Of a DNA stretch of 61,768 nt, positions 2,198 to 54,002 are shown piece after piece. The notes beneath the pieces are model-generated. The model did not search any database. It was not told where the DNA came from and saw only the letters and a program-made list of their open reading frames with translations. Location: IMG/VR virus record IMGVR_UViG_3300033388_002585, positions 1 to 61,768 of that record. The stretch is one strand, 5' to 3'. Within the stretch, counting starts at the first letter, position 1; each line of letters begins with the position of its first letter. The translations under genes and the position numbers were made by a program. This stretch comes from a virus. Lineage: Duplodnaviria > Caudoviricetes.

Positions 2198-2219
2198 AGT
2201 ATCTCCCCCTTGTTTCCTT

Positions 2220-2408
2220 TTAATAAATTTCAGGCAGCCCCTTGACTTCAGCCTCAAGTCTCTGCAATTCTTCTAAGGATCCCCCATCACCAAATTCTAC
2301 CAAATCATAATCCAACACGTTGACATTTACTTCAACATCTCTATGAGCATCGGCATATACAGCCGTTATTGCTCCGCCTCTGATCTCAATGTATATATTC
2401 GCTTCCAT
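2220..2408 (-). CDS. Hypothetical protein
   Basis: ORF preceded by the conserved GGAGCGTAAAAGC-ATG junction motif. Confidence 0.7.
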   Translation of the reverse strand: MEANIYIEIRGGAITAVYADAHRDVEVNVNVLDYDLVEFGDGGSLEELQRLEAEVKGLPEIY

Positions 2409-2495
2409 GCTTTTACGCTCCTTTTTTATCTTCTTTTTTTCTTTAAGTACAAATGGTTATTATATACGTTTATCCAACCTTTATTCAACCTTGAC

Positions 2496-3239
2496 TTAAA
2501 TCCACGCCGGTTCTTTATCTGCATCCGGCCATGATTTAATTTGACTTAACACACTTTCCGGTACATCTTCATGCAACCGCGTGGAACCATACTTGTACCC
2601 ACAGACCGGACAAGCCTTCATTAAGACCCCCTCTAAATGCTCTGTTTCACGTACACAGTTTGATGTCTTTGTTTCCCTGGACTTTTCTTTGTAGCATTCT
2701 GGAAACGGTAAATCTTTTTGTTCATAGGGTAAAGACAGGATTAAAATCTCATCTTTTGTTAACTCTATTTTTTCACCCTCAATAAGTCTTTTTATTGCAA
2801 GGTCTTTAATAGCTTTCCTTTTTTCCATAACTTCAGGCGTCAATTGATAAGTTGCCACTTCCAGTCTTTTCTTACCCCAACCTTCAGCTCTCTGATGCTT
2901 ACATCCGGCCCTCATATCGTTTAAATGCCATTGTTCCCAAATATCCAGTAAGTCAAGCCATGACTCCCGATCCCATCCCGGTGCGAATTTAATATCTTCA
3001 GGTTTAATCAACTTATCATGCCTGCTATCATCATCAGCCGGATCTCTATGCTCAAATTCCATGTCAATCTGACCACAGCCCCCTCTTGTATCCCCATTTC
3101 TCAACGGGCCAATAACCCCCGTAAAAGATAACCTGTTATTATTGAATTCTGTCTTAATAAAGATATTACCCCCGTGACGTTCTTTGATCTTGCCAATTCT
3201 CATTACTTTGCTTATCTTTACTTCATTTGTCTTTTCCAT
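2496..3239 (-). CDS. Hypothetical phage protein (WHLNDM motif, CPVCGYKYG Zn ribbon)
   Basis: 247-aa ORF with GGAG RBS and the motifs named. Confidence 0.8.
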   Translation of the reverse strand: MEKTNEVKISKVMRIGKIKERHGGNIFIKTEFNNNRLSFTGVIGPLRNGDTRGGCGQIDMEFEHRDPADDDSRHDKLIKPEDIKFAPGWDRESWLDLLDIWEQWHLNDMRAGCKHQRAEGWGKKRLEVATYQLTPEVMEKRKAIKDLAIKRLIEGEKIELTKDEILILSLPYEQKDLPFPECYKEKSRETKTSNCVRETEHLEGVLMKACPVCGYKYGSTRLHEDVPESVLSQIKSWPDADKEPAWI

Positions 3240-3243
3240 GCTT

Positions 3244-3582
3244 TTACGCTCCTTCCCCTGACTCTTTGTTTATATTCTTTATCAACACTACTTCACGCCT
3301 GATTTTCTTGACGCTAATCCAATCGGTCTGAAAAAATGAACCCGCATAATCTTTAACCCAGTATGAATGAAGGAAGCCAACTTCAACCGGCTCACCATCT
3401 GGCCCATTTACGTAGACTTTATTCCTGCCCTTCGGCATTTTGCCATAGTGATCTACCAGAAAACCATTGACGGCTCCAACCGACTCACACTCTTCTTTAA
3501 TTTGCTGTAAATAGTGCGGGGTCTCTGCTAAACTTTTCCTGTAGGTCTCATCAATTTTTACTTCATAATATACTTCTTCCAT
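3244..3582 (-). CDS. Hypothetical protein
   Basis: 112-aa ORF with the conserved junction motif. Confidence 0.7.
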   Translation of the reverse strand: MEEVYYEVKIDETYRKSLAETPHYLQQIKEECESVGAVNGFLVDHYGKMPKGRNKVYVNGPDGEPVEVGFLHSYWVKDYAGSFFQTDWISVKKIRREVVLIKNINKESGEGA

Positions 3583-3618
3583 GTTTTTACGCTCCTTTCG
3601 CTTCTATTATACAACTGG

Positions 3619-17375: not shown

Positions 17376-17585
17376 ATGGAAAAAGAAGAAGCAATAACCA
17401 ATCTAAGAAAAAACTCAATTGATGTTGACGTGGATGATAGGATTATTTCATTGCAATCTGATACAAAAATTGGTAACAAGGTATGGAGCTACATTGATTG
17501 TCTTGTAAATTATCACGGGTTCATTTTAACAAGGCATGGAGTAGGCGGAAAAAGAGCGAAGTATAAAAAGGGAGCCTTGAGATAA
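17376..17585 (+). CDS. Hypothetical protein
   Basis: AAGGA RBS; IGNKVWSYIDCLVNYHG. Confidence 0.6.
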   Translation: MEKEEAITNLRKNSIDVDVDDRIISLQSDTKIGNKVWSYIDCLVNYHGFILTRHGVGGKRAKYKKGALR

Positions 17586-17587
17586 GC

Positions 17588-18082
17588 ATGGGCGATAAAA
17601 TAATCAGCAAGACAAAGAAAATTAAAACAGCAGCACAAAAAAAAGAAAGTGCGTTGACTCTTCGAGCCTTTGAGTATTATTATGGGCTTGGAGATTCACG
17701 CACACTATCCAAGGTTGCCAAGAAGTTTAACAGGACTTTAGGTTCTGTTGAAGGTTGGTCGAGTAAATTAAAATGGCGTGATCGAGTACGTCAGCGTGAG
17801 TTAGATGTAGCTGCTAATATTGCAAAAGAGGGGTTTGAGCAGGCGACCGAGGTAAACAAGCGGATACTCAGTATTATTAAAGCCTCAGTAGATGTAAAAG
17901 TAGTAAAGGGAGAAGATGGAGAAGAAGAGATTGTACCGTTACCGATTAAAAACTTTTCAGACGCACAGAAGGCACATGAGTTACAGGACAGAATATTGCA
18001 CCCGGAGAGGTACAATAGAGCAGGAGACGATGACGAGGGAGGAAATAAAGTTGCTGTTGTCGTTAATATAACAAAGAGTTAA
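17588..18082 (+). CDS. terS: Terminase small subunit (probable)
   Basis: AFEYYYGLGDSRTLSKVAKKF...WSSKLKWRDRV HTH; abuts the large subunit. Confidence 0.75.
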   Translation: MGDKIISKTKKIKTAAQKKESALTLRAFEYYYGLGDSRTLSKVAKKFNRTLGSVEGWSSKLKWRDRVRQRELDVAANIAKEGFEQATEVNKRILSIIKASVDVKVVKGEDGEEEIVPLPIKNFSDAQKAHELQDRILHPERYNRAGDDDEGGNKVAVVVNITKS

Positions 18083-20530
18083 ATGCCTCAAAAACAAAGT
18101 ATTCAGAAACAGCATTCAGTTAATTTTTCTTACAAGTACGCACCCACGTTACAAGCATTCAATGAGTGTAAGAAGCGGATCAGGGCGGTTATAGGGCCGT
18201 TCGGCTCAGGAAAATCATCTGCAATGGTTATGGAGTTGTTCCAGGCTGGATGTAATCAGCTTCCCGATTCACATAACGTTCGCAGGTCTCGCTGGCTTGT
18301 GGTTCGTAATGTATATCGCCAATTAACAGACACCACTATCCCTACCTTTTTTGATTGGTTTCCCCCGTATTACTTTGGTTCATATAATAAAACAGAACAT
18401 CGGTATAACATGTCCATGCCTCTTTCTGATGGTACGGTATTAGACATGGAGGTATTGTTTCGAGCGCTGGATAAAGAAGAGCACGTATCGAATCTTTTGT
18501 CGCTTGAAGTATCCGGGGCATGGCTTAACGAATACCGGGAAATCCCCAAGATAATCTTTGACGCGATTGATGGTCGTATTGGTCGGTATCCTCCCCGCCG
18601 TGAAGTGGGCTGCACCTATCCTTTCACAATTATGGATTCTAACCCTCCTGACCATGAACACTGGTCGTATAAATTGTTTGAAGAAGAAAGAATGAATGAT
18701 GTGGCCCTTTATGAGAAGTATCAGATATTCCATCAGCCTTCTGGTTTATCTAATGAAGCTGAGAATTTACCTTATCTTCCAGAAGGATATTATGAAAACC
18801 TGGCTGCTGGAAAGACTCCTGATTTTGTTCGTGTGTATGTAGATGGTCAGTATGGTTATGTTCGCAGTGGCAAGCCTGTCTACCAAAACTACTCCGATGT
18901 ATTACATTTAGCCTTAAAACCTTTGTCTCCCGTAAAATCAGTTCCGATAATAATTGGTATGGACTTTGCGCTTAATCCGGCGGCTGCTTTTACCCAATTT
19001 ACTCCATCTGGAAACTTTAATGTATTGAGAGAGATTACAGGCGAGGGAATGCCTTTGCGTACTTTTGTAACTGAATTATTAATGCCTATAGTTCATGCGT
19101 ATTACCGTGGGTTCCGTATTATAATTATAGGAGATCCCAGTGGAGTTAAGAGAGCGGATACAGATGGTAGAACATGCTTCCAGGAGTTAATTGATTCAGG
19201 ATTTCATGCGATTCCAGCTAAGACTAACGCAATCCAGGCCAGGTTCGCTGCCATAGATTCTCTCCTTACCAGGATTCAAGGGGGCAAGGCAGTATTTCAG
19301 CTTGATCCCTCTTGTACTATGCTGCGGAAAGGATTTCTGGGTGAATACAAGTTCCCGGAGATTCATTCACGGCATGGATTGATGTATGCGGAGAAGCCTC
19401 TTAAGAACGAATTTTCTCACTGTTTCACAAAAGATACGTTAATAAGATTAGTTGACGGACAAAAAAGAATAAAAGACGTGATAGTCGGGGATATAGTTAA
19501 AACCCCATGGGGAAACAGGAAAGTGTTAAAGGCATGGATGACAAGAAGTAACGCAGAAATAATGGAAATAAACTTATCGGATGGTAGAAAAATTAAGTGT
19601 ACTCCTGATCATAAATTTATTTTAGCTAACAAAAGTGTTGCGTATTGCAGGTCATTGCAGTATAAGGATGTTTTATGTGATTATCATTTAAATTTAAAGG
19701 AGATAGAGACATGGAACATCCAAAGTTTATTGAATTTAAAGGAAAGAAATACAGATTATCCGACGGGGGATATTACAGGGTTGAAAACTGGGGAAAAGCC
19801 ACATGTAATTTACACAGGGCTGTTTGGGAAGATTATACTGGGAATAAAGTTCCTGAAGGATACGTTGTCCACCATATTGATAAAAATGTTTTTAATAACG
19901 ATATCACCAATCTTGAGATTATGCCCAACGGGAAACACGCATCAATGCACACCAGAGAAAGACTTGCCCATGATCCTGAATCATTTCAGCGAGCAATTAA
20001 AATTGCAAGAGAAGCTGCGAAAAAATGGCATGGATCTCCAGCCGGAATTGAGTTTCACAAAAAGCTTGGAAAGCAGGTATGGATCGGTAAAAAGAAGTAT
20101 ATTAAGATTTGTGAAGTATGTGGAGAGGAGTATTCAACGTATTTCCCAACGAGAAGCAAATGGTGTTCTCCTAAATGTCAACAAAAAGCAAGAAGGTTGC
20201 GGGGGGATGACAATGTGGAAAGAATATGTTCTGAATGTGGTGAATCGTTTATTACCAATAAATATAGTGCAACAAAAACCTGCTCTTCACGTTGTGGCGG
20301 TAAACTTGCTGCAAGAAACAGAAGATGTGTATAATATAACAGTAGATGTTGATCATGTATATTTCGCTAATGATGTTCTTGTCTTTAATTGTCATGATGC
20401 TTTACAATATGCCGGGTTAGGTTACGAGGTTATGGATCAGGCTAAAGGCTTAACGGATCTCACAGGAACAATAGTAACACGAAAAAGAGAAGGTGTTGAA
20501 AAAAAGAGAGTGATGGCTGCGTATACATAA
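18083..20530 (+). CDS. terL: Terminase large subunit with intein
   Basis: Walker A GPFGSGKS, Walker B AWLNE, DSNPP, RNase H-like IGMDF and HDALQY. Confidence 0.95.
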   Translation: MPQKQSIQKQHSVNFSYKYAPTLQAFNECKKRIRAVIGPFGSGKSSAMVMELFQAGCNQLPDSHNVRRSRWLVVRNVYRQLTDTTIPTFFDWFPPYYFGSYNKTEHRYNMSMPLSDGTVLDMEVLFRALDKEEHVSNLLSLEVSGAWLNEYREIPKIIFDAIDGRIGRYPPRREVGCTYPFTIMDSNPPDHEHWSYKLFEEERMNDVALYEKYQIFHQPSGLSNEAENLPYLPEGYYENLAAGKTPDFVRVYVDGQYGYVRSGKPVYQNYSDVLHLALKPLSPVKSVPIIIGMDFALNPAAAFTQFTPSGNFNVLREITGEGMPLRTFVTELLMPIVHAYYRGFRIIIIGDPSGVKRADTDGRTCFQELIDSGFHAIPAKTNAIQARFAAIDSLLTRIQGGKAVFQLDPSCTMLRKGFLGEYKFPEIHSRHGLMYAEKPLKNEFSHCFTKDTLIRLVDGQKRIKDVIVGDIVKTPWGNRKVLKAWMTRSNAEIMEINLSDGRKIKCTPDHKFILANKSVAYCRSLQYKDVLCDYHLNLKEIETWNIQSLLNLKERNTDYPTGDITGLKTGEKPHVIYTGLFGKIILGIKFLKDTLSTILIKMFLITISPILRLCPTGNTHQCTPEKDLPMILNHFSEQLKLQEKLRKNGMDLQPELSFTKSLESRYGSVKRSILRFVKYVERSIQRISQREANGVLLNVNKKQEGCGGMTMWKEYVLNVVNRLLPINIVQQKPALHVVAVNLLQETEDVYNITVDVDHVYFANDVLVFNCHDALQYAGLGYEVMDQAKGLTDLTGTIVTRKREGVEKKRVMAAYT
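19421..20389 (+). mobile_element. Intein in TerL nuclease domain (about 323 aa)
   Basis: SH|CFTKDTLI, block B KCTPDHKF, block F DVYNITV, end LVFN|C. Confidence 0.9.
19711..20334 (+). CDS. HNH homing endonuclease nested out of frame in the TerL intein
   Basis: AAGGAG RBS; LHRAVWE, VHHIDKNVFNNDITNLE...H; two CxxC...CS..C Zn modules. Confidence 0.85.
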   Translation: MEHPKFIEFKGKKYRLSDGGYYRVENWGKATCNLHRAVWEDYTGNKVPEGYVVHHIDKNVFNNDITNLEIMPNGKHASMHTRERLAHDPESFQRAIKIAREAAKKWHGSPAGIEFHKKLGKQVWIGKKKYIKICEVCGEEYSTYFPTRSKWCSPKCQQKARRLRGDDNVERICSECGESFITNKYSATKTCSSRCGGKLAARNRRCV

Positions 20531-20672
20531 GGATAAGCGAAGACACAAACAATAACCTGTTAATATTTACATTGACTTTTGAATTTTTTTTATTTATCTT
20601 TGATAAGTCTTTGGGAAGTTTTTGGGAAGTCTTTGATAAACTTTTAGCAAACATTGTACGGGGGATAGACTC

Positions 20673-23600
20673 ATGTTGATAAATGTGCAGACTAATGAAC
20701 AGATAGAGAAAGAAAAGAAAATAGAAACCAAGGCTGTTGATGTTGCCGAGAGTGCTGAACTGATAACCAGTCTTTCCGCGTATGTTGATACATGCTGGAG
20801 TGAAGCTAAAGCAGAAAAAATAGAATTCGAAAAGCAGCTTTTAATCAATAAACGGCAAATAGATGGTATATATGATCCTGATAAACTTGCTGCCATAAAA
20901 GAATTTGGATCATCAGAAATATTTGTTTTTATCACAGATACCAAGTGTCGTAATGCGGATGCGTGGGTAAAAGATATCTTATTCCCTCCCAATGAAAAAT
21001 GTTGGGGTATCCGCCCAACTCCACAGGCGGAAATTCCTTCCAACATTCGTGGAAAAATCCTTGAAACTGTTGCTCGGGATGTATTGCAGGGTGCTATGAA
21101 TAATGCTTCTCAAGGTCAGCCTTCCGATCCACTCCAAATTTATAAATCCATTATGTCCAAGATGCCTGAGATAGAAGAACACCTTAAAACGTTTATTCAG
21201 AAAAAGGCTAAAGAGATTGCCGCACAGATGGAGGTTAAGATTAACGATCAGTTGACTGAAGGTGACTGGTATGATGCTGTATTGGGTGTTTTGCCGGATG
21301 TTATAATGGGTACGGGCTTCGTGAAGGGTCCTATATTAAGAAAGCAGAGGGCTAAAAAGGTTGAGGTAGACCCTGAATCAAGTAAGTTTAGTGTGAAGAT
21401 TATGGAAAAAGCAATCCCCAAGTATGAGATTCGGCCTCCGTTTAATATTTATCCATGTCCGGGAAGTACGGGTATCAACGATGGCTATTTGTTTGATCGG
21501 ATTCAAATAACGCCACGGGGGTTACAGGAACTTATAGGGATTCCGGGGTTTGATGAAAAAGAGATTAGATTAGTGTTACAGGAATATGAACAGGGAAGTT
21601 TGCACGACTGGCTTAATCTGGAGATTGATCGTAACCTCAAGGCTATGGATAAGATTGTTACCGGGAGTGTGAATGTATCTTACAATTCTCACAAGATAGA
21701 TTGTTTGGAGTTTTGGGATGCCATACAGGGCAAGAAGTTAAAGGAATGGGGTGTTACAAAGAAAGATATGACTTTCGATGATGATCTTTTTTATGATTTG
21801 TGTGTATGGAAAATAGGCGGACATATTATCAAAGTAATGTTTAACCCTGATAAATTGGGGATGAAACCTTTTTCTAAAGCATCGTTTGAAGAAAAGTCAG
21901 GAAGCTTCTGGGGGCGCGGTTTACCTCAAGTAATAAAAGATGCTCAGCAGGCTGCTAACGCATGTGGTCGAGCCATTATAAATAATGTTGCGATAGGCAG
22001 TGGACCCCAAGTAGAAAGAAACATTGACAGAGTACCGCGTTCAGATATAGCCGATAATATTTTGTACCCATGGCGAGTATGGGATGTAACTAACCAGCAG
22101 GCAATATCCAATGCTCCCGCTCTCAAGTTTTATCAACCCCCTATGGTAGTAGATAAGATTCTCACAGTTTTTGATCGATTTATAAAGATAGCTGATGAAC
22201 ATTCTGGGGTGCCTGCGTATGCTCATGGAGATGTAAGGGTAGGAGGAGCTGGTCGTGCTCTTGCTGATTATGAGAAAGTTTTAACGCCTCAAGGTCCTGT
22301 ATGTATAAGTCAACTTAAAGCAGGTGATTTGGTCGTTAATTCATACGGGTCTGCTTCTACAGTAACAGGAGTATACCCACAAGGTGAATCTGATATCTTC
22401 CGCTTAAAATTTAATAACGGTAAGCATGTTGATTGTGATATGGAGCATCGCTGGTCAGTAAGGACACATCATAATCGTAAATTTAGAACTATGACGACTG
22501 AGGAAATTCTGGATGCGGGGTTATTTAGAAAAACAAAGAAAGATTACAGGAATCCGAGTGGCTGGCGGGCTAAGTGGATGTTACCGTTATTTGATTATAT
22601 AGAGTTTGAAGAAAGGGAAGTAAAGATTGATCCGTATACAATGGGTGCTTTAATAGGAAATGGAGATGCTCGGTGCAGGCTTACGTGTCGAGATAAAGAA
22701 GTTTTCGAGAGGATTCCGTATCCATTAGGAAAAGTTGATCGCAAAGGAGATAGTGCTGCATGGACGCATACGGTTAAAGGAATTAAGTTGGATTATTTGT
22801 CGTATGGATTAAAGTGTAAGTCTGTTGATAAATTTATTCCTGAAGATTACTTATTTAATTCAAGACAGATACGATTGGAGTTGCTTCGAGGCTTAATGGA
22901 TACTGATGGTTGTTGTTCGAAGGAAGGTGGAACTGATTATTCTTCGTCGTCGTTCAGGTTAATTAATGATTTTAGAATACTGGTTGAATCTCTTGGCGCA
23001 ACGGTAGGAAGTATAGGCGAATGTGAGGGTGGCGAATTTGAAGTTAATGGTAGGAAAAGTGTCAGACAAAAGGCATATAGAATTAAATTTAACCTTCCTG
23101 GAGAAAAATTGTTTTACGTTCCAAGAAAGCATAAGAGGGTATTTGATCGGAAGAAAACCCACACATACATAACAGGAATTGAATATATCGGGAAACATAC
23201 AGCAACGTGTATTACCGTGGATTCCCGAGATAGCTTGTTTCTTTGTGCTAATTTAATACCCACGCATAATACAGCCTCAGGGCTCTCCATGTTGATGCAT
23301 GGAGCGGCGAGAGGCATTAAATCTCTTATCAAGACTATCGATGAAAAAATCATATCTTCCACAGTAGAACGTCAGTATTACTGGAATATTGAACAGAAAG
23401 AAAACTTCGGGCTTATATGTGATTTTCAGATTGAGGCTCGGGGAAGTGCTGCTATGCTGGCTAAAGAACAGCAGTTAACCCGGATGGTAGAATTCGCGCA
23501 GGCAACTGCTAATGAATATGATATGAAACTAATGGGAGCTGCTGGGCGGGCTTATATAATAAGTGAGATAGCAAAGCAATTCGGGTTAGATGTTGATAAG

Positions 23601-23795
23601 GCTTTCCCGATGCTTGATGCGATTATGAGGCAAGCTGAGCAACGGGAATTAGGGAGTGAAAGTGGAGTAGAAGGCAGAGGAGAGGAGAGTGCTGGTGCTA
23701 TGGGAGGTCAGGGACCGGCAGCGAGAACTCTTGACATGGCTGGAAATCCTGCTCAGGGTACTGATATGAATGAGTTTTCAGCAGATAGAGGATAA
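20673..23795 (+). CDS. Portal protein with intein
   Basis: Follows terL; GTGFVK, FWGRGLP, SGVP...TASGLSML portal-like motifs. Confidence 0.85.
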   Translation: MLINVQTNEQIEKEKKIETKAVDVAESAELITSLSAYVDTCWSEAKAEKIEFEKQLLINKRQIDGIYDPDKLAAIKEFGSSEIFVFITDTKCRNADAWVKDILFPPNEKCWGIRPTPQAEIPSNIRGKILETVARDVLQGAMNNASQGQPSDPLQIYKSIMSKMPEIEEHLKTFIQKKAKEIAAQMEVKINDQLTEGDWYDAVLGVLPDVIMGTGFVKGPILRKQRAKKVEVDPESSKFSVKIMEKAIPKYEIRPPFNIYPCPGSTGINDGYLFDRIQITPRGLQELIGIPGFDEKEIRLVLQEYEQGSLHDWLNLEIDRNLKAMDKIVTGSVNVSYNSHKIDCLEFWDAIQGKKLKEWGVTKKDMTFDDDLFYDLCVWKIGGHIIKVMFNPDKLGMKPFSKASFEEKSGSFWGRGLPQVIKDAQQAANACGRAIINNVAIGSGPQVERNIDRVPRSDIADNILYPWRVWDVTNQQAISNAPALKFYQPPMVVDKILTVFDRFIKIADEHSGVPAYAHGDVRVGGAGRALADYEKVLTPQGPVCISQLKAGDLVVNSYGSASTVTGVYPQGESDIFRLKFNNGKHVDCDMEHRWSVRTHHNRKFRTMTTEEILDAGLFRKTKKDYRNPSGWRAKWMLPLFDYIEFEEREVKIDPYTMGALIGNGDARCRLTCRDKEVFERIPYPLGKVDRKGDSAAWTHTVKGIKLDYLSYGLKCKSVDKFIPEDYLFNSRQIRLELLRGLMDTDGCCSKEGGTDYSSSSFRLINDFRILVESLGATVGSIGECEGGEFEVNGRKSVRQKAYRIKFNLPGEKLFYVPRKHKRVFDRKKTHTYITGIEYIGKHTATCITVDSRDSLFLCANLIPTHNTASGLSMLMHGAARGIKSLIKTIDEKIISSTVERQYYWNIEQKENFGLICDFQIEARGSAAMLAKEQQLTRMVEFAQATANEYDMKLMGAAGRAYIISEIAKQFGLDVDKAFPMLDAIMRQAEQRELGSESGVEGRGEESAGAMGGQGPAARTLDMAGNPAQGTDMNEFSADRG
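22257..23270 (+). mobile_element. Class 3-type intein with LAGLIDADG endonuclease in the portal (about 338 aa)
   Basis: Ala1 (ALADYEKV), block B EHRW, block F TCITV, PTHN|T; MGALIGNG and LRGLMDTDG motifs. Confidence 0.88.
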
Positions 23796-45911: not shown

Positions 45912-48900
45912 ATGAACATGGATAAATTTGGATTTTCCGAACCTTTTGACCAGGAACAGCCTAACTACAATCCACCTGCCTCTGATGATCCTTTTGGTTT
46001 CTCTGAGCCTGAAGATGATTTGTCTCTTCCTATGACTTCTACTCGAGAACCTCGTGAGCCTCATGGAGTAACTCGTAGCTTTGGTGATGATTATACTCCT
46101 CCAGATGATTATACTTCTCCAATGGGTGCAATACCCATGGGTGAAGAAGGTAAATATGGCTGGGGTTTCTCGGATGAGGATCAACAAGCTGATAAATTCG
46201 GGGACAGGTTTGGATTTTCTGAGCCTGAAGCCATACCTGCGAGCGCCATACCTGTAGCCAAAAAACCCTCTTTTTTTGAGCATATAAAACAACTTCCCTC
46301 GGACATTATGGGTGGTTTAATCGATTATACTGAAATGGTTCCGCGTGAATTGCGTGCATTGCCTGGTGGCCCCAAAGCTGGCCAAGATAAAGAAGGCTTA
46401 ATGGGTCGTATGGTTACCGGGATTGAAAAATACAAAGAAACTCACCCTCAATATAAAATGCCGGAGAGCAAAGGTATATGGGGAGCAATTCATGGTGGCC
46501 TTAGAGCTGCTGCTACATCTATGGCTGCTGGTCTTCCGGGTATGGCTGCCGGGGCTGCTACTGGCGCTGCTTTGGGTGGTGGTGTTTTCTCTCCGGTTAC
46601 TGCGTTTATTGGCGGTGTCCTTGGATACGCTACCAGTGGAGCATTACAATTTGGGTTAAGTCAATATGATTCAGCCATGGAGGAAGCCCTTGATGCTGGT
46701 AAATCAATGAAACAAGCTGAATCTTATGCGTTAAAAACCTCTATATATGAAGGTGTGTTTGAGTTCGGTGCAGACCTTCTCGAAGGCGCTACGTTCAAGT
46801 TAGGTAGCATTTTTACAGCCCCCGTTAAGAATATAGTCAAAGCATCGTTGAGAGACTTATTTACCCACAATCTCAAGAATGCGGTTAAGCGTACAGCCAT
46901 GATAGCAGCTATCGAGACCCCTTCAGAAATGTTAACGGGGGGAATGCAGGCCGAGGCTGCTCATGATATAAATCTGGGCGACATGAGATTCTGGGATGCG
47001 GCTAAACAAGCTTTCGGACCTGCATTTGTGGCTTCTCTTATTTTCGGTGGAATAGGTGCTGCTGGAGTGTATAAGTATAAGAAAGGAGTCAAAGCTGCGT
47101 TAACTGATCCAAGCAAATCCTTTGAAGAACGCATGACGGCGATTAAAACTATATCAGAAGTCATTAAACCATATTCACCTGAAGCTGCCAATGCGTGGGA
47201 CATTGTAGGCTTTGATGCTGTAGCTCAGAATAAACCCATAGACCTCGATATGAAGTTTGATAGAGAAAGCGATCAAGACTACAAGGTAGCAGAGGAAAAA
47301 TTGAGACAAACTCGGCTACAACTTAATGTGCCAGAACAAAAAGTTACCAAGGAACAAAGGCAGGAATTTATAAATGAAGACTTTAAGGGTAAGACCCCTG
47401 TGGCAAAAGAAGACACCCAGCAGTTTATTGCAGTTGGTGGTCCTGCTGGAGCGGGGAAATCCACATCTATCGACAATATAATGAAGGATAATAAGCTGGA
47501 TATCGATACTTTTGTCATTATTAATCCTGATGCATACAAGGAGCGAGCTGGATATACCGGAGATCGGGCAACATTATTCCACGCAGAAAGTTCTCAGATG
47601 GCAAGAGAAGCTTTAAAACGAGCTGTGGATCAGGGATATAACGTGTTATATGATAGCCAGATGAGAAATTTTGATGTTGTCAGCGATGCTGCTGATACTG
47701 TTATTAATAATGGTGGGAATGTTGGTATAAGTTTTACTGATACTGATTATGTAACCTCTCGCGCCAATACTGAAATACGGAGAGTCAGTGGCAGGGAAGA
47801 CAGATATGTTCCTGATACCGCGATAGTTAATGGAATTAACGGAGGAGTTCCAACGCTCATTGAATTGGTAAGGAAATATGTTGACAATCCTGCTGTGATG
47901 TTTAACATTGAGTCTAATAACGTAGAGTTTGGAAATCCTGTTCCCATTGTTGTTAATGACAGGATTGTAAATCAAGAAATGCTTCATAGGCTCATGTCGA
48001 CTCCCTATGATTCGATACTAACACCGGAAGGAGGAATAAAATATGAAAGGTCCATTACTGGCGGACGAATTAATACGGAGACTATCCAACAAGCCTCAGA
48101 GGAGGTTGAAAGTAGGGTCAATGCTCGGAGAGTTGTCAAAGGCACTAAGGAAAGTCGCGCAGTCGGAAAACTCCTTGCAAGAAGAACAACCGATACCCTC
48201 GAAGACTACGTTGCCAAGATAATTGATGAAAAGCATGGCGGTATATTTGTATCTCCGAATGTAGCTGAACCGGTTGAAGGTGAATCGCGGGTAGATAGCC
48301 TTGAGAAAGCATTAAAGTATATCAAATCCACGGGGCAAGCTTCATTTGCTTCTATCATGAAGGATATAGGTAAGCGTGTAGATGTTACCGTTAAGACTTT
48401 TCCAGCTCTTGGGACATGGGGGCAAACAGTAGAGAATTCTTTATTCGCTGTTATCCCCCATGTAAATAGCTTTGATAAGCTTCGATACATGGCGGCTGCT
48501 CAAGGATTAATCGGAAGACAAAAGGCTGTCATTGCCTTCATGATGGATCGTGACGGAGATCAAAGATTGTATGAGGTAGATACTGGCAGCACAGATATAC
48601 GTGAAGTTCACGCTACATTTGATGAAATAGGCATAGAAAGCCATACCTTTGCGCTTAACAATGATGGAACTGTGAAGGCATTGGTATATGATTATGCTGG
48701 AACTGAAATAGAAAACATACAGGAGGTAGGGAAACGTTATGGCAAAGAAATTAAAATCCACAAAGGGCAAGGCGAATATCTCGCGTCCCCCGAAGAAACA
48801 AGACCCCAAAGTGCAAAGTTTTTCAGAGAGATTACAGATCGCTATGAAGAAGAATCCGAATATGGTTTGGGCCGATTCAGAAAATGGGAAAGGACTGCTC

Positions 48901-51900
48901 ATATAAGTCCACCTATTCTTCCTGTTAGCTTAAACAATAACGTGCGATATCTTAAGACAACTCCGGGTGAAGGTGAAATTCCGCCTATGTATCAGTTTTG
49001 TGATGTGTCTTCTGGCATGGGGTTTTCTATTCCTTATATGCTGAAGGGTAAGGAATTAAATAAAGCGATCAAGGATGAGCTGGATAAGATTAACGAGAAG
49101 GTTGATAAAATATCAGTAACGGCATTTGATTTGAAGCCTAAAATATCTCCTCCCACTCCCGCATTCAAGGCATGGTTCGGTGATTCAAAGATAGGAACCC
49201 CCAACAACCCCGAGATGCTATTCCACGGGACCTTCGAAACCTTTGATACATTCATCTGGGGTGACTTGGGCTTCCATTTTGGTACTGCTGAACAGGCGAT
49301 GGATCGGATACGGGGAAAACGCCAAAACCTTCCCGCAAATACATGGGAAGAAATGGTAAACCGCAAGGATACCTATATGCCTGTGTATCTGAAGATGGAA
49401 AATCCCCTTGAAATGGATGACTGTAATTGGGACGACTTCTCGCGGGTGTATGAAGAAGTCCGGGATGTCTTAAGGCGAAAGGGTGAGTTTTTTACTGAGG
49501 CTGATGCTGATTTATTGTACAATATATTTTATCGTGGTTCTACTGCTGGTAAAAACGCCATGCAGTCGAGCGATGTAAAGGTTAAGAATGAGGCCGAGAC
49601 CGAGGGGCTAAACGCTCTCCGCCAGGCTCTCCAAAACATAGGATACGATGGGATCAAGTATATTAATAGGTACGAGGGATACCGGGAGACTGGCGTAAAA
49701 AATATCCCTGAATTCCTAAAACACAAAACAAGACCAGATTACTCATACATAGTCTTCGACGCCAATCAAGTGAAGTCTGTATACAATCACGGTTCATTCT
49801 CTGATTCCAAGAACATATACCTTCAAGTTCAGCATAAGAGCGAACAGGAAATATTAAACCGTATGCGTGCTGGTGAGTTGAACCCTTCCGAAACTTTAAC
49901 AGCATATCTCCGCGGGATAGAAGAAACCAACCATATATACAAAACCATGCAGAGTTGTTTTAATCGTGTGCTTGATAAGGAAACTCGGGATCGTGTTACC
50001 CTTGAACTACAAGACGTTATAAATCTTTCTGATACGACCATTAATGTAGGTCGCAGCTTACAGGATCATGGCATAACTGAAGCTGAATTAAAGGACTATG
50101 ATATCGCCGGTCTCACCTCTATATCTATGCCTAACCTTGGTGCGTCAATTCAAATAGCCTACGATACAAACGCTGGAATAGTTGCCAAAACCACATACCA
50201 TGAATGCTTTCATCTAACCTCAGCGTGGTTACTTCCTGAGAATGATCGAAACTTCTTGTTAAGAACATACGGAAATGAAGAAGCAACGGCTGATGCATTT
50301 GCCGCATATGCTCGGTCTCATCCTGATTTTAAAGCTCCTAACTCACGTATAGAGGCAATATTCAGAACACTCAAGCGATACCTTGATTACGTTTACCATT
50401 ACTTACAAGGTCACGGATTCAACAGACCGGAAGATATATTTGGGACCATATTAACTCATGGATACCGCATGCAGCCTGACTCTATTATCAAAGCACGTAT
50501 GCTTGAGAATCTTGATACGGCCTTAGATATTAAAGCTACGCAGACAATTAATGACAGGGAATGGATAGAATCCCCCGAGAGTGCAGCATCCAAACCTCCT
50601 CTCGATGATGATCTATCTCCACGTATATTCTACAACGGTATTCAGAAAGGGTTCGGCTCTATGCCTGATCACTATATGTTTATTGATAAGCTTGTTTCTG
50701 GCTCTACTTTTCTTGTTCCAATGGTTAGCGGACAAGAAGTAAACAATCTGATACGCAAGAAGTTGGAATCATTAAGTAAACAAGCAGCTACCTTCACCAA
50801 ACCTGACATTAATAAGATACTGGATACGATACACAAGACTACCGGGAAATTAAGTATATCGAAAAAAGAAGAACAAAACAGGTTGCAGGCAGAAACTGAT
50901 GCGGCGAGAGTTAAGAGAGCAAACCAGGATACCCCTATCGTTGCATTGGATGGGACTCCCTATAAAACAAAATCTGCTGCTATGTTAGCTCGATCAAACC
51001 TCACAAAACAATACGGTCACGACTACGATGTTATAGAGCATCAAGGTGGATATGCACTACAACGTGTTGTGGATTACCAGGACCCCATTTCAAAAGATGC
51101 TGCGATAAGAGAGGCTGCGAGAACCCAAGACAAGATTAACATAGCTACGGGAGTCCAGAAGATTGGTCAGCTTATAGTAGAAGGCGAAACATTAGATATC
51201 GCTATGGCCAAAGCTGAAAAAGAATCCGCTCATGCTGAAAAGATAGGTAAAGCAGAGGGTAAGGAGGTTGAAAAAGAGAAGACCAAAAAGGCCAAGGAAA
51301 AGGCTAAAATCAAAAAGGCTGCGCTAAAAGAGATCCGGGACATGATTGACGATTTGAAAAAGGCTGGAAAAAAGGTTGATAGAATGCCTCGGAATCAGGC
51401 TAAAGCTGTACGTGAATTGTTAGCCGATATTGATCTCAAGAAACCTACAAAGAAAACGTTGAGCAGACTAAACAACACCAGGAAATTCTTAGAGGATAAT
51501 CCGGAATATTCAACCATGCCTCCTCATGTCATTGAGGAATTACGGAGACTTGAGTTAAAGGCTTTCAGGGACTTGGATATAGATGATATGAGGCTGATCC
51601 ATGACGCTATATTACACCACATTCACTTAGCCTCAACCATAAACAGGATAAAAGTAAACCAGAAGAATCGAACTTTTACTGAAACCGTATCAGACATACT
51701 TGGATCACTGAAACCATCTAAAGAAATACATAGCGAACTAATGGCGCAAACTGAAAAGCCTACCCCATACAAAAACTTATGGGATTCAATAACTTACCTG
51801 TTTGGGCTGGCTCAAGAACATTATGATTTTATTATCGAAAAGGTTGCTGGAATTAACAGCACTTTTCATTATGTTTTTTACAAGGATGTTAAAAGAGGCG

Positions 51901-54002
51901 ATGATAAACGAGTCGAGCATGAGTATGCGACATGGGATTTATTAAAGCAACGCCTCAAGGAAAATGGTTTTGATCCAGCAAAAGTGGGTGGTGATGTAAG
52001 CGCATGGATGAATGAGAGAATAACCACAGCAGGGTTTGAATTAACTCGTGGACATCGTATGGCCTTATATCGTCATTGGTTAAATGCGGACAACCATAGG
52101 TCTCTCACAGATATAGCAGGAGGTTTCACTCTTCCAACCAATAAAGACCCTAACAAGATATACAATATGACGGAAGGTCAACTTGAAGAAATTATTGGAG
52201 ATTTAAGCGAGCAGGAAAGGATATTTGCTGGTGATGCTGTTACTAAATTGTTTGAGGAACAGGGCAAGGCTATGGCCGAGGTATTCTATAAACTAAACGG
52301 ATATGAATTAAAACTCGTTGACTATTATTACCCCAAACAAGTTGCTCCCCTTGCCCGTGGACTGGATATTTCTCAAGAAGAAGCTCGGAAGGAATTTGAA
52401 AGGAAATATTTAAGAGTAGGTGTACCAAAGGGAATGACCAAAGAACGCCAAGGAGTAATAGTTCCCATAAAACTTAACTCGTTACCATATGATATCAACA
52501 AGAGTGTAATGCAGGCCTCAGCGTATATCAATTTGGAAATCCCCATATCCAATGCCGCGAGAATACTGTTTGACAAAGGAAAGGTAGATAAGAAGACAAA
52601 TAAACGTACGCTGGGATTCAGACAGGAATTCATAAACAGATACGGGGAAAAAATGTTCAAGGAAATAGAAAAGGGTCTCCGTGATATCTCGGGTGAATGG
52701 GAAAGTTATACCATAGTTGAAGAAGGGTTAATGAAAATGAAGAACCACTTGTCAACTGCAATCCTGGGACTCAATCCGTTTGTTATGTTAAAGCAGCTTA
52801 TGTCCTTCCCTTTATATCTTCCTTACGTTAACTTTAACCATTTATCTCAAGGGTTAATGGACGCCATAGTGAACCCCACACAAACTAACAATGAGATTAA
52901 AGTGTTTTCTCCTGAATACCGCCGCCGAGTTGAGGGTGGATTTAGTCGTGATGTTATGGATATCTTCAAGACAGGTATGGTTAAGCAGATGTACGGGGGT
53001 AAGGCTTCAATCCCTGAACGAGTTATGGGCGGCATTAAGATGTTCGATCAAGCGGCTGTTATGTCTGGAATGAGAGGAGCGAGAAACCAGGTATTGGCAG
53101 AATTTGAACAGGGTAAGTTAAGCAAAGAAGTGAAGGAAGGGTTGGATCTAACCGATGCTGATATCCCCAACCTCACACCCGAAGAAAAAATGAAGTATGC
53201 TTATGAGTACGGAGATTATGTTACCGAGCGATCACAGCCCATGTTTTCTCCTGAACATCGTTCAGCTTTATCTCGTGGAGGTCCCTGGGTTCAGCTATTC
53301 ACCATGTTTGGTTCCTTCACTAACCAAGCCTATAACCTCATCCGTCGAAGTGTAGCTGAATGTTCTCGAACAGGAAGCAAGGAATCGTACAGTAAGCTGG
53401 CTAAAGTTTTGTTCCTGCTCCTTGTTGTTAATACTCTCGGAATCATGGCGATTGATTGGCTTCGTGATGAACTATACCAGCGTAAGAAACAATACCGGAG
53501 ATCATTATGGCGTGGTGTTCTCGATAACTGGGCCGGATACATGTTCTTCGTCCGTGACCTTGAAAAAGCTATATCGAGTAAGATTGAGAAAGGTCCGTGG
53601 TATGGATACGATGTCAGCTTACCCATAAATAAAGTACCTGAATTATTTGTAGGTGCAGTGAGCAGCGGCGTGGGTGCGTTAATAGATAAATCTGCTGGGC
53701 AGAGAAAAAAGAAGGCGTTAAGATTTGTGGATGACTCTCTATCCCTCTGGGCAATGAGTAAGGGAATCCCATACCAGACCCCCAAGAACCTGGTGCAGTC
53801 TGGCTACAAGGGATTCAAAAAAATTGAACGTCGTAAAAAGATGCAGGATATTCTTAGAGGTAAACGGAAACAAGTAGCTCCAACGGATAAGTCCGGGTTC
53901 TCTGAACCAGTCTTTATGGAATCTCAGCAACCAGCACAGCGACAACCAGCGCGGGGAACACCAGAAACAGAAGACAGGTTCGGGTTCTCTGAGCCACGGT
54001 AA
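45912..54002 (+). CDS. Giant polyvalent ejection protein (zeta-like P-loop kinase, SAM-lyase-like, ART-like, HExxH peptidase)
   Basis: GGPAGAGKST/INPDAYK/FHAESS; GTW...ENS...QKAV; FKAWFG/FHGT/GFHFG/VYL...NPL/GYDGI/YIVF...QVKS; HECFH; large helical C-terminus. Confidence 0.85.
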   Translation: MNMDKFGFSEPFDQEQPNYNPPASDDPFGFSEPEDDLSLPMTSTREPREPHGVTRSFGDDYTPPDDYTSPMGAIPMGEEGKYGWGFSDEDQQADKFGDRFGFSEPEAIPASAIPVAKKPSFFEHIKQLPSDIMGGLIDYTEMVPRELRALPGGPKAGQDKEGLMGRMVTGIEKYKETHPQYKMPESKGIWGAIHGGLRAAATSMAAGLPGMAAGAATGAALGGGVFSPVTAFIGGVLGYATSGALQFGLSQYDSAMEEALDAGKSMKQAESYALKTSIYEGVFEFGADLLEGATFKLGSIFTAPVKNIVKASLRDLFTHNLKNAVKRTAMIAAIETPSEMLTGGMQAEAAHDINLGDMRFWDAAKQAFGPAFVASLIFGGIGAAGVYKYKKGVKAALTDPSKSFEERMTAIKTISEVIKPYSPEAANAWDIVGFDAVAQNKPIDLDMKFDRESDQDYKVAEEKLRQTRLQLNVPEQKVTKEQRQEFINEDFKGKTPVAKEDTQQFIAVGGPAGAGKSTSIDNIMKDNKLDIDTFVIINPDAYKERAGYTGDRATLFHAESSQMAREALKRAVDQGYNVLYDSQMRNFDVVSDAADTVINNGGNVGISFTDTDYVTSRANTEIRRVSGREDRYVPDTAIVNGINGGVPTLIELVRKYVDNPAVMFNIESNNVEFGNPVPIVVNDRIVNQEMLHRLMSTPYDSILTPEGGIKYERSITGGRINTETIQQASEEVESRVNARRVVKGTKESRAVGKLLARRTTDTLEDYVAKIIDEKHGGIFVSPNVAEPVEGESRVDSLEKALKYIKSTGQASFASIMKDIGKRVDVTVKTFPALGTWGQTVENSLFAVIPHVNSFDKLRYMAAAQGLIGRQKAVIAFMMDRDGDQRLYEVDTGSTDIREVHATFDEIGIESHTFALNNDGTVKALVYDYAGTEIENIQEVGKRYGKEIKIHKGQGEYLASPEETRPQSAKFFREITDRYEEESEYGLGRFRKWERTAHISPPILPVSLNNNVRYLKTTPGEGEIPPMYQFCDVSSGMGFSIPYMLKGKELNKAIKDELDKINEKVDKISVTAFDLKPKISPPTPAFKAWFGDSKIGTPNNPEMLFHGTFETFDTFIWGDLGFHFGTAEQAMDRIRGKRQNLPANTWEEMVNRKDTYMPVYLKMENPLEMDDCNWDDFSRVYEEVRDVLRRKGEFFTEADADLLYNIFYRGSTAGKNAMQSSDVKVKNEAETEGLNALRQALQNIGYDGIKYINRYEGYRETGVKNIPEFLKHKTRPDYSYIVFDANQVKSVYNHGSFSDSKNIYLQVQHKSEQEILNRMRAGELNPSETLTAYLRGIEETNHIYKTMQSCFNRVLDKETRDRVTLELQDVINLSDTTINVGRSLQDHGITEAELKDYDIAGLTSISMPNLGASIQIAYDTNAGIVAKTTYHECFHLTSAWLLPENDRNFLLRTYGNEEATADAFAAYARSHPDFKAPNSRIEAIFRTLKRYLDYVYHYLQGHGFNRPEDIFGTILTHGYRMQPDSIIKARMLENLDTALDIKATQTINDREWIESPESAASKPPLDDDLSPRIFYNGIQKGFGSMPDHYMFIDKLVSGSTFLVPMVSGQEVNNLIRKKLESLSKQAATFTKPDINKILDTIHKTTGKLSISKKEEQNRLQAETDAARVKRANQDTPIVALDGTPYKTKSAAMLARSNLTKQYGHDYDVIEHQGGYALQRVVDYQDPISKDAAIREAARTQDKINIATGVQKIGQLIVEGETLDIAMAKAEKESAHAEKIGKAEGKEVEKEKTKKAKEKAKIKKAALKEIRDMIDDLKKAGKKVDRMPRNQAKAVRELLADIDLKKPTKKTLSRLNNTRKFLEDNPEYSTMPPHVIEELRRLELKAFRDLDIDDMRLIHDAILHHIHLASTINRIKVNQKNRTFTETVSDILGSLKPSKEIHSELMAQTEKPTPYKNLWDSITYLFGLAQEHYDFIIEKVAGINSTFHYVFYKDVKRGDDKRVEHEYATWDLLKQRLKENGFDPAKVGGDVSAWMNERITTAGFELTRGHRMALYRHWLNADNHRSLTDIAGGFTLPTNKDPNKIYNMTEGQLEEIIGDLSEQERIFAGDAVTKLFEEQGKAMAEVFYKLNGYELKLVDYYYPKQVAPLARGLDISQEEARKEFERKYLRVGVPKGMTKERQGVIVPIKLNSLPYDINKSVMQASAYINLEIPISNAARILFDKGKVDKKTNKRTLGFRQEFINRYGEKMFKEIEKGLRDISGEWESYTIVEEGLMKMKNHLSTAILGLNPFVMLKQLMSFPLYLPYVNFNHLSQGLMDAIVNPTQTNNEIKVFSPEYRRRVEGGFSRDVMDIFKTGMVKQMYGGKASIPERVMGGIKMFDQAAVMSGMRGARNQVLAEFEQGKLSKEVKEGLDLTDADIPNLTPEEKMKYAYEYGDYVTERSQPMFSPEHRSALSRGGPWVQLFTMFGSFTNQAYNLIRRSVAECSRTGSKESYSKLAKVLFLLLVVNTLGIMAIDWLRDELYQRKKQYRRSLWRGVLDNWAGYMFFVRDLEKAISSKIEKGPWYGYDVSLPINKVPELFVGAVSSGVGALIDKSAGQRKKKALRFVDDSLSLWAMSKGIPYQTPKNLVQSGYKGFKKIERRKKMQDILRGKRKQVAPTDKSGFSEPVFMESQQPAQRQPARGTPETEDRFGFSEPR
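48043..48222 (+). CDS. Nested +1-frame ORF A (59 aa), candidate antidote
   Basis: AGGAGG at 48029-48034, 8-nt spacer, ATG; MKGPLLADELIRRLSNKPQRRLKVGSMLGELSKALRKVAQ... Confidence 0.55.
   Translation: MKGPLLADELIRRLSNKPQRRLKVGSMLGELSKALRKVAQSENSLQEEQPIPSKTTLPR
48739..48906 (+). CDS. Nested +1-frame ORF B (55 aa), candidate antidote
   Basis: AGGAGGT at 48721-48727, 11-nt spacer, ATG; MAKKLKSTKGKANISRPPKKQDPKVQSFSERLQIAMKKNPNMVWAD... Confidence 0.5.
   Translation: MAKKLKSTKGKANISRPPKKQDPKVQSFSERLQIAMKKNPNMVWADSENGKGLLI

Follow-up and report, generated by a model that had tools for sequence, protein, structure and literature searches.

A probable dual-coded intein in a phage large terminase gene, overprinted in the +2 frame by an HNH endonuclease gene

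In the phage genome IMGVR_UViG_3300033388_002585, the gene for the large terminase subunit (terL) contains a putative intein whose middle part, in the terL frame, is free of stop codons and resembles no endonuclease; the same DNA in another frame encodes a complete HNH protein. This raises the question of whether an essential phage gene includes a stretch with two coding frames, and what each frame is kept for. The window analysed here is the whole record, a complete phage genome of 61,768 bases that is bounded by direct terminal repeats and has one copy of the HNH gene. According to our analysis, the terL intein is very probably dual-coded, with a stop-free spacer in the terL frame and the HNH gene in the +2 frame, and would constitute a homing element.

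The terL intein and the gene nested within it

The features of the locus are as follows:

18083-20530 (+): terL precursor open reading frame (ORF) of 815 amino acids, composed of an N-extein of 446, an intein of 323 and a C-extein of 46 residues
18083-19420 (+): N-extein, ending in '...KNEFSH', the first half of the nuclease motif (D/S)H-xx-DAxxY
19421-20389 (+): intein, TerL residues 447-769, with Cys1, a terminal Asn, a penultimate Phe and Cys at +1
19421-19705 (+): N-terminal splicing region with blocks A and B, intein residues 1-95, predicted local distance difference test score (pLDDT) 94-98
19706-20287 (+): TerL-frame spacer, intein residues 96-289, with no stops and no recognised domain, mostly at pLDDT <50; the HNH gene overprints this segment
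20288-20389 (+): C-terminal splicing region with blocks F and G, '...VYNITVDVDHVYFANDVLVFN', intein residues 290-323, pLDDT 94-98
20390-20530 (+): C-extein, 'CHDALQYAGLGY...' plus the stop codon; the nuclease motif is completed after splicing
19711-20334 (+): HNH endonuclease ORF of 207 amino acids, in the +2 frame relative to terL, ending with TAA
19697-19702 (+): Shine-Dalgarno-like AAGGAG, 8 nt before the HNH ATG
19666-19721 (+): predicted RNA hairpin with the HNH AUG in its 3' arm; the 111-nt fold has z = -3.26, equalled by 1 of 200 shuffles

The 815-residue product was recognised as TerL by its match to phrog_2 (1.1e-31) and, weakly, to Terminase_3. Its frame is continuous from 18083 to 20530, with neither the stop after the N-intein nor the separate C-intein start that characterise fractured genes. 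The original prediction had placed an intein at 19421-20389, and this is borne out by a Pfam Intein_splicing match of 53 bits on residues 447-769 (cut-off 35.8), by the N-terminal nucleophile Cys447 of TerL ('CFTKD'), by block B in the form 'TPDH' (TxxH), whose His64 is invariant in 48 aligned intein sequences, and by the C-terminal end 'VLVFN' with its terminal Asn, followed by Cys at +1. By its Cys1, block B and Hint profile, the intein is of class-1 type, splicing itself being predicted; the spliced TerL would be 492 amino acids long. The intein lies within the nuclease motif (D/S)H|xx-DAxxY, which intein-free TerLs have in unbroken form, and the insertion site is identical across very different TerL families, with extein identity of just 19-23%.

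The middle of the intein presents a different picture in each of the two frames. The Pfam scan of the TerL-frame reading found no endonuclease family there, and in the AlphaFold2 model of the intein (48-row alignment) residues 100-285 are mostly at pLDDT <50, with one patch at 62-80. The +2 frame carries a complete ORF between blocks B and F, with its own ATG and with its stop 55 nt upstream of the intein end. Pfam assigns it to HNH_3 (46.2 bits, with a cut-off of 24.8) and PHROGs to phrog_15471, 'HNH endonuclease' (3.7e-37). The protein has a His-Me finger of HNH_3 type at its N-terminus, a helical 'WHxSxEGxxWH' region and, with the pattern CxxC...C...C, two zinc ribbons. In 48 sequences, the catalytic residues H54, H55, N67 and H76 are invariant and N63 is nearly so; among the zinc-ribbon cysteines, C134, C137, C152 and C156 are invariant and C173, C176 and C191 nearly invariant. 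The catalytic His/Asn, the 'WH.S..G..H' motif and the eight cysteines show little or no variation, whether a copy is nested or free, and the window copy keeps the catalytic His/Asn and all eight zinc-binding cysteines.

The AlphaFold2 model of the HNH protein (48-row alignment) has a mean pLDDT of 95.3, with the zinc ribbons above 95. The nearest solved structure is the homing endonuclease I-HmuI (PDB 1u3e), encoded in a Bacillus phage intron, with a Foldseek probability of 0.98 (E 0.011), a profile-search E of 1.2e-3, and a VIA alignment at Z 7.5 and root-mean-square deviation (rmsd) 9.0 over 108 residues. I-HmuI is the best profile and fold match to the N-terminal 120 residues; it differs from the window protein in being intron-encoded and in its C-terminal DNA-binding part, and the identity is 19-22%. 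To judge from its motifs and its structural model, the nested ORF looks like the gene of an HNH_3 endonuclease that is akin to I-HmuI, has two zinc ribbons and is predicted to be functional. The original prediction of a complete out-of-frame HNH ORF at this place was thus confirmed.

Recurrence of the layout and selection on the two frames

A profile-seeded scan of IMG/VR confirmed 571 HNH relatives, the best 80 of which were used together with two closer ones from a single-sequence scan. When the intein and the HNH protein were compared separately with GenBank phages by tblastn, the same places were matched in two different frames in Clostridium phage phiCDHM19, Acinetobacter phage Highwayman, Rhodobacteraceae phage LS06-2018-MD07 and the gut contig MT838676; an HNH match was also found inside terL of Tetrasphaera phage TJE1. 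The nested HNH gene is unannotated in the GenBank records of phiCDHM19, Highwayman, TJE1 and LS06-2018-MD07.

Among 95 other loci with an HNH homologue, 66 have a host frame that is open across the whole HNH gene and beyond both of its ends. The third frame was open across the HNH gene in none of the 95, and in none was the HNH gene in frame with the host ORF. Together with the window, the 66 loci form 52 clusters at 90% host-protein identity, five GenBank loci included. A Hint or intein Pfam match (E<=1e-3) was obtained for 50 of the 51 non-window representatives, most of which also have terminase domains; in the remaining one, L022, the alignment still shows Cys1 and '...ANC'. Cys1 is present in all 52 representatives and the terminal Asn in 51 (L072 has Gln), position +1 is occupied by Cys in 47 and by Ser in five, and the HNH offset is +2 in every one. 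The distance from the HNH stop to the intein end ranges from 4 to 88 nt, most commonly 55 nt.

Some further observations concern this family. PHROGs includes families built from terL-frame intein readings: phrog_30251 aligns over residues 445-772, and the match of phrog_35162 ('unknown function') takes in the spacer together with the C-blocks, residues 584-773. One locus (L094, 680-3898) encodes a 1073-residue TerL with two inteins, one between the ATPase and nuclease domains (residues 266-564) and the second, HNH-overprinted, at the nuclease motif. In Vibrio phages 1.245.O, 1.238.A and 1.238.B, a weaker HNH homologue (24% identity), possibly nested or split, underlies features annotated as 'hedgehog/hint domain protein' and 'terminase large subunit'.

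The openness of the terL frame is hardly a matter of chance. Across the HNH ORF it contains no stops, where shuffling of the codon order leads to an expectation of 5.7 (none in 2 of 20,000 trials, P = 1e-4) and synonymous resampling with the codon usage of the window to one of 7.0 (none in 1 of 20,000, P = 5e-5). Resampling with the codon usage of the HNH ORF itself gave a mean of 3.3 stops and a P of only 0.024, which indicates that the codon choice of the HNH gene is already adapted to an open terL frame. In the same relative frame, 18 other long ORFs of the window have a mean of 13.2 stops per 208 codons. Over the 52 representatives, 1.3-7.0 stops were expected in each and none was found in any (summed log10 P = -124, an upper bound on the strength of this result, the sequences being related). 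In 27 non-nested HNH homologues, the terL-equivalent frame has 1-13 stops (mean 6.1) and the third frame 2-36 (mean 17.6); the +2 frame costs least to keep free of stops, which is probably why no other is observed.

The pattern of substitutions was examined in eight phylogenetically independent pairs, drawn from 67 close pairs after the exclusion of identical and path-overlapping ones. In the overlap, terL codon position 2 is HNH codon position 3. The mismatches at terL codon positions 1, 2 and 3 numbered 51, 169 and 76 in the overlap (296 in total), 177, 110 and 913 in the exteins (1200) and 31, 27 and 102 in the splicing regions of the intein (160). Outside the overlap, terL position 3 thus takes 1015 of 1360 substitutions; inside it, HNH position 3 takes 169 of 296. 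Changed overlap codons were synonymous in 147 cases and nonsynonymous in 104 when read in the HNH frame, and synonymous in 45 and nonsynonymous in 209 when read in the terL frame. The concentration of substitutions on HNH position 3 indicates that the HNH frame is under protein-level selection. In the terL frame it is the splicing blocks that are conserved, and the spacer is there under no constraint beyond the avoidance of stops.

According to the original prediction, the HNH protein is read separately and the spliced-out frame tolerates the overprinting, the intein middle in the terL frame being stop-free and devoid of an endonuclease. The recurrence of the layout in 66 loci, the substitution pattern and the two structure predictions all support this.

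Mobility, forms of the element and rival explanations

The distribution of the element at its insertion site points to mobility. A search of IMG/VR with the N-extein returned 34 relatives, 30 of which reach the junction; the other four (L121, L124, L125 and L127) stop short of it and were excluded. The junction 'SH-xx-DA.QY' is uninterrupted in 29 of the 30, including the closest relative (64% identity), and only one, on the contig of L022, has the intein with the HNH gene. Among close pairs of carriers, L033 and L035 show no mismatches over 2307-3606, with 2-14 mismatches per 100 nt upstream and up to 39 downstream. L044 and L048, and likewise L084 and L086, have an intein-centred tract of identity between diverged terL flanks. 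Such tracts, as compared in the sequences, fit gene conversion with co-conversion of the flanks.

An alternative is that the HNH protein serves mainly as an accessory to terminase packaging and not in homing, its location in terL securing co-expression. HNH proteins have a role in HK97-type packaging, and all homologues examined lie within or beside terL, terS or the portal gene. A zinc-ribbon HNH gene is also described as adjoining cos and the terminase genes in many phages (PMC3592412, in the accessible part of that article). Evidence against such an accessory comes from the absence of the HNH gene at this junction in 29 of 30 close TerL relatives and from the mosaic identity tracts around the element; furthermore, the closest solved relative is a homing enzyme and the Pfam family, HNH_3, is typical of free-standing homing genes. 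We regard a primary role in packaging as unlikely.

A second alternative concerns the way in which the HNH protein is made: ribosomes might shift by -1 on the terL message or re-initiate in a manner coupled to its translation, and the product might be fused to the N-extein and N-intein. Relative to terL, the HNH gene does lie in the -1 frame, the hairpin that holds the AUG of the window would yield to a translating ribosome, and more than half of the representatives have no clear Shine-Dalgarno site. On the other hand, a start codon stands at the N-terminus of the HNH homology in 52 of 52 representatives, and the open stretch of the HNH frame begins just 3-98 codons upstream of that homology. 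A Shine-Dalgarno core occurs in 23 of the 52, the background rate for start triplets drawn at random from the N-exteins being 15.5%. Sixteen of the 51 relatives were folded to minimum energy, and several have the Shine-Dalgarno site or the AUG in a stem; a conserved hairpin over the HNH start was rejected as a family feature, since family-wide sequestration of the Shine-Dalgarno site and start codon is not significant (pairing probability 0.58 versus 0.54 with shuffled flanks, n = 23, Wilcoxon p = 0.20). A sigma-70-type promoter scan of 17400-20800 gave 16 sites against 9.3 +/- 3.1 expected, none convincingly upstream of 19711, and was not used. Production by frameshift or coupling seems quite improbable to us.

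It has also to be considered that the insert is not spliced at all and is retained in TerL, as happens with ShiLan, which sits in a phage methylase, does not splice and hides an HNH gene in another frame (PMC11855218, in its accessible part). The missing penultimate His of the window intein would agree with this. Nevertheless, the Hint-domain matches exceed the Pfam cut-off, and conservation extends to Cys1, the TxxH of block B, the terminal Asn and the +1 Cys/Ser. Of the 160 changes in the splicing blocks, 102 fall at position 3, a sign of constraint in the terL frame, and the insert divides a nuclease motif that is left whole in intein-free relatives. Retention of the insert is very unlikely.

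If the HNH ORF were a decaying relic or a chance ORF, only the intein would matter; the homing-cycle model indeed expects the endonuclease to decay after fixation (10.1101/2025.01.02.630785, in its accessible text). This is contradicted by the accumulation of overlap substitutions at HNH codon position 3, by the catalytic and zinc-binding residues kept in the window copy, by the confidently modelled fold and by an intact HNH ORF in 66 nested loci, which make a relic highly improbable. Finally, the window is derived from a metagenome and the interior of its intein lacks raw-read cover, but an assembly or sequencing artefact, in which two compensating indels shift an in-frame HNH domain out of frame (the error against which the original prediction had warned), has a negligible chance of explaining a +2 offset that recurs in 52 of 52 lineages, in independent assemblies and in isolated, sequenced phages, with an ATG, Shine-Dalgarno site and TAA of the ORF's own and with an in-frame version in 0 of 95 loci.

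Several points weigh against the interpretation of the locus as a dual-coded homing element. The penultimate residue of the intein is Phe where His is usual; inteins without the penultimate His can still splice, and across the 52 representatives the residue is His in 19, Ser in 16, Phe in three and another in 14. The likeness of the HNH protein to I-HmuI is only modest, at the Z and rmsd given above, and HNH_3 enzymes such as I-HmuI nick DNA rather than cutting both strands. As for expression, 29 of 52 representatives have no obvious Shine-Dalgarno site (some hosts may dispense with such sites), and the AUG of the window lies inside the predicted hairpin, which would hamper free initiation. 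Ordinary recombination between phages could also be the source of the identity tracts. The survey is biased, in that relatives were ranked by likeness to a nested query, and proportions such as 66 of 95 are not representative. The one public DNA run found contained 0.09 of the sampled words, and three short contig pieces from it cover only 20232-20312 and 20367-20500 and no other part of the intein; no RNA run was found.

The 29 loci in which the HNH gene is not nested are instructive as well: 12 are split inteins, 15 have a free-standing HNH gene, one is Clostridium phage phi CD119 and one is truncated by the contig end. In the split form, a terL ORF ends in the N-intein and is followed by a separate HNH ORF and a short ORF for the C-intein and C-extein, with '...HN|C.DA.RY'. 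An example is Lactobacillus phage CL2 (L011, KR905067.1), with ORFs at 455-1951, 1967-2590 and 2487-2771, the last of which overlaps the 3' end of the HNH gene and is unannotated in the record; L045, L051/L053, L060, L064, L071, L076, L078/L080 and L087 are further split loci. In the free-standing form, the HNH gene adjoins an intein-free terL and mostly lies between terL and the portal gene. In phi CD119 (L014, AY855346.1, 715-2592), terL is annotated as two genes; the intein halves are read in the same frame and are separated by stops located at 1743 to 1852, and homology to the HNH protein is seen only from query residue 47 onward. This locus represents either a decayed element or errors in an old sequence, and the nested form is intact in the related phiCDHM19.

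Exiguobacterium phage vB_EauM-23 (L010, MH844558.1) deserves separate mention. At about 2200-3300, its annotated terL ends with '...NNHSMAA*' at the insertion motif and is followed by the HNH gene, with a C-extein-like stretch, 'CDATRYAM...', downstream in another frame and no intein blocks detected. It may be a terL fractured without an intein, or a decayed one.

The HNH tree was built from 82 distinct rows of 96 sequences (identical rows and the short L018 were dropped). Nested and non-nested states, the latter both split and free, are interleaved on it, and parsimony counts nine state changes, at least four of them forced by well-supported branches, compared with 20.3 for shuffled labels. 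The tree is unrooted and therefore does not fix the order of the nested, split and free events; the earlier proposal that a free-standing HNH gene invaded a mini-intein is accordingly not established.

Two other features of the window may be recorded here. The portal gene (20673-23795; SU10_portal, weak) also has an intein, roughly from 22257 or 22302 to 23270, which contains a LAGLIDADG_3 domain in its own frame (residues 734-776). Its end reads 'PTHN|T', and its first residue is either Ala529 ('ALADYEKVLT', block-A-like, with no Cys) or Cys544; to judge from the Cys of block F ('TATCITVD'), it may belong to class 3. At 45912-54002, a polyvalent protein of 2696 amino acids contains Zeta_toxin-like kinase (3e-16) and ART-PolyVal (5e-7) domains.

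Comparison with known systems and significance of the family

The original prediction had also presented the architecture as a distinct one, and in this respect it does not hold, because out-of-frame endonuclease ORFs in inteins have already been reported in preprints of 2025-2026. In its accessible text, the study of Gosselin et al. (10.1101/2025.01.02.630785) describes inteins of actinophages, some of them in terL, that harbour a gene resembling endonuclease VII 'in reading frame 3 relative to the intein', and proposes invasion by free-standing endonuclease genes. These inteins resemble that of the window in having an endonuclease ORF between the splicing blocks at the same +2 offset, terL among the hosts, and an in-frame reading without recognisable structure. 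By description, the enzymes are set apart, although they may belong to one family: that of the actinophages is endonuclease VII-like (IPR004211, best structure 1E7D), whereas that of the window is an HNH_3 protein with two zinc ribbons and similarity to I-HmuI. T4 endonuclease VII was absent from the matches listed in the fold search with the HNH protein. The survey of Gosselin et al., as far as its accessible text goes, covers PhagesDB actinophages only; the family of the window occurs in Clostridium, Acinetobacter, Tetrasphaera and Rhodobacteraceae phages and many uncultured lineages. No PhagesDB-type actinophage was among the 36 and 60 matches listed in tblastn searches of GenBank phages with the HNH proteins of the window and of TJE1, respectively.

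Phillips, DeSimone and Gogarten (10.64898/2026.09.14.751524), in the part of their text that could be accessed, report a cyanobacterial dnaX intein with a LAGLIDADG homing endonuclease in the +2 frame and cite Gorbalenya 1998 for the idea of an out-of-frame endonuclease in dnaX. The likeness extends from the +2 overlapping ORF to the selection pattern, with a low ratio of nonsynonymous to synonymous substitution rates in the endonuclease frame and with synonymous changes lost from the extein frame where the two overlap. The dnaX case differs in its LAGLIDADG enzyme, its cellular host gene and its bacterial carriers.

The fractured genes of Dassa et al. 2009 (PMC2677866), as presented in the accessible part of that article, are split inteins with a free-standing GIY-YIG or Vsr-like gene between the halves, and HNH enzymes were there only predicted to be able to fracture genes. 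This form is matched by the 12 split loci among our 29 non-nested relatives, CL2 included, in which the 3' end of the endonuclease gene overlaps the C-intein ORF; it is not that of the window, whose intein is contiguous and whose terL frame has no stop. The ShiLan domain of Arsenault et al. 2025 (PMC11855218), described in the accessible text as a hidden, actively mobile HNH in a mycobacteriophage methylase, shares with the window an out-of-frame HNH ORF inside a stop-free host ORF. It has no splicing domain and no detectable ribosome-binding site, unlike the window with its full Hint domain and AAGGAG. The accessible portions of two further articles (PMC8228797 and PMC12403621) mention TerL inteins or HNH genes and no nested ORF.

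The architecture is therefore a known one, while the endonuclease family, the insertion site and the breadth across unrelated hosts differ from the described cases. In the literature searched, we found neither the nested TerL/HNH_3 family described nor any split terL intein whose two parts are separated by an HNH gene. We give about even chances to a broader reading, that of a large pan-phage family of TerL nuclease-motif inteins always overprinted in the +2 frame by one I-HmuI-like HNH/zinc-ribbon gene, with the same endonuclease occurring also in split-intein or free form.

The proposed mechanism of a dual-coded homing element would operate as follows. In the terL frame, the spacer would carry the ribosome to the C-terminal splicing blocks and the C-extein and would then be discarded with the intein, protein splicing regenerating the 492-residue TerL. 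Internal initiation on the late terL transcript would produce the HNH protein, which would nick or cut the intein-free terL of relatives infecting the same cell, at the insertion site or close to it; during repair, the intein and the HNH gene would be copied jointly.

In conclusion, about 620 bases of an essential phage gene appear to be read in two frames, one held to its protein sequence and the other only kept free of stops, and the nested gene has been overlooked by gene callers and intein databases. The contiguous overprinted, split and free-standing forms may be regarded as three states of one mobile element; with all three in one family, the models of an endonuclease invading an intein and of gene fracture become directly testable. 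If this is true, the family would provide a natural series for the acquisition of intein endonucleases and the origin of split inteins, as well as a source of natural split inteins and of putative site-specific nickases.

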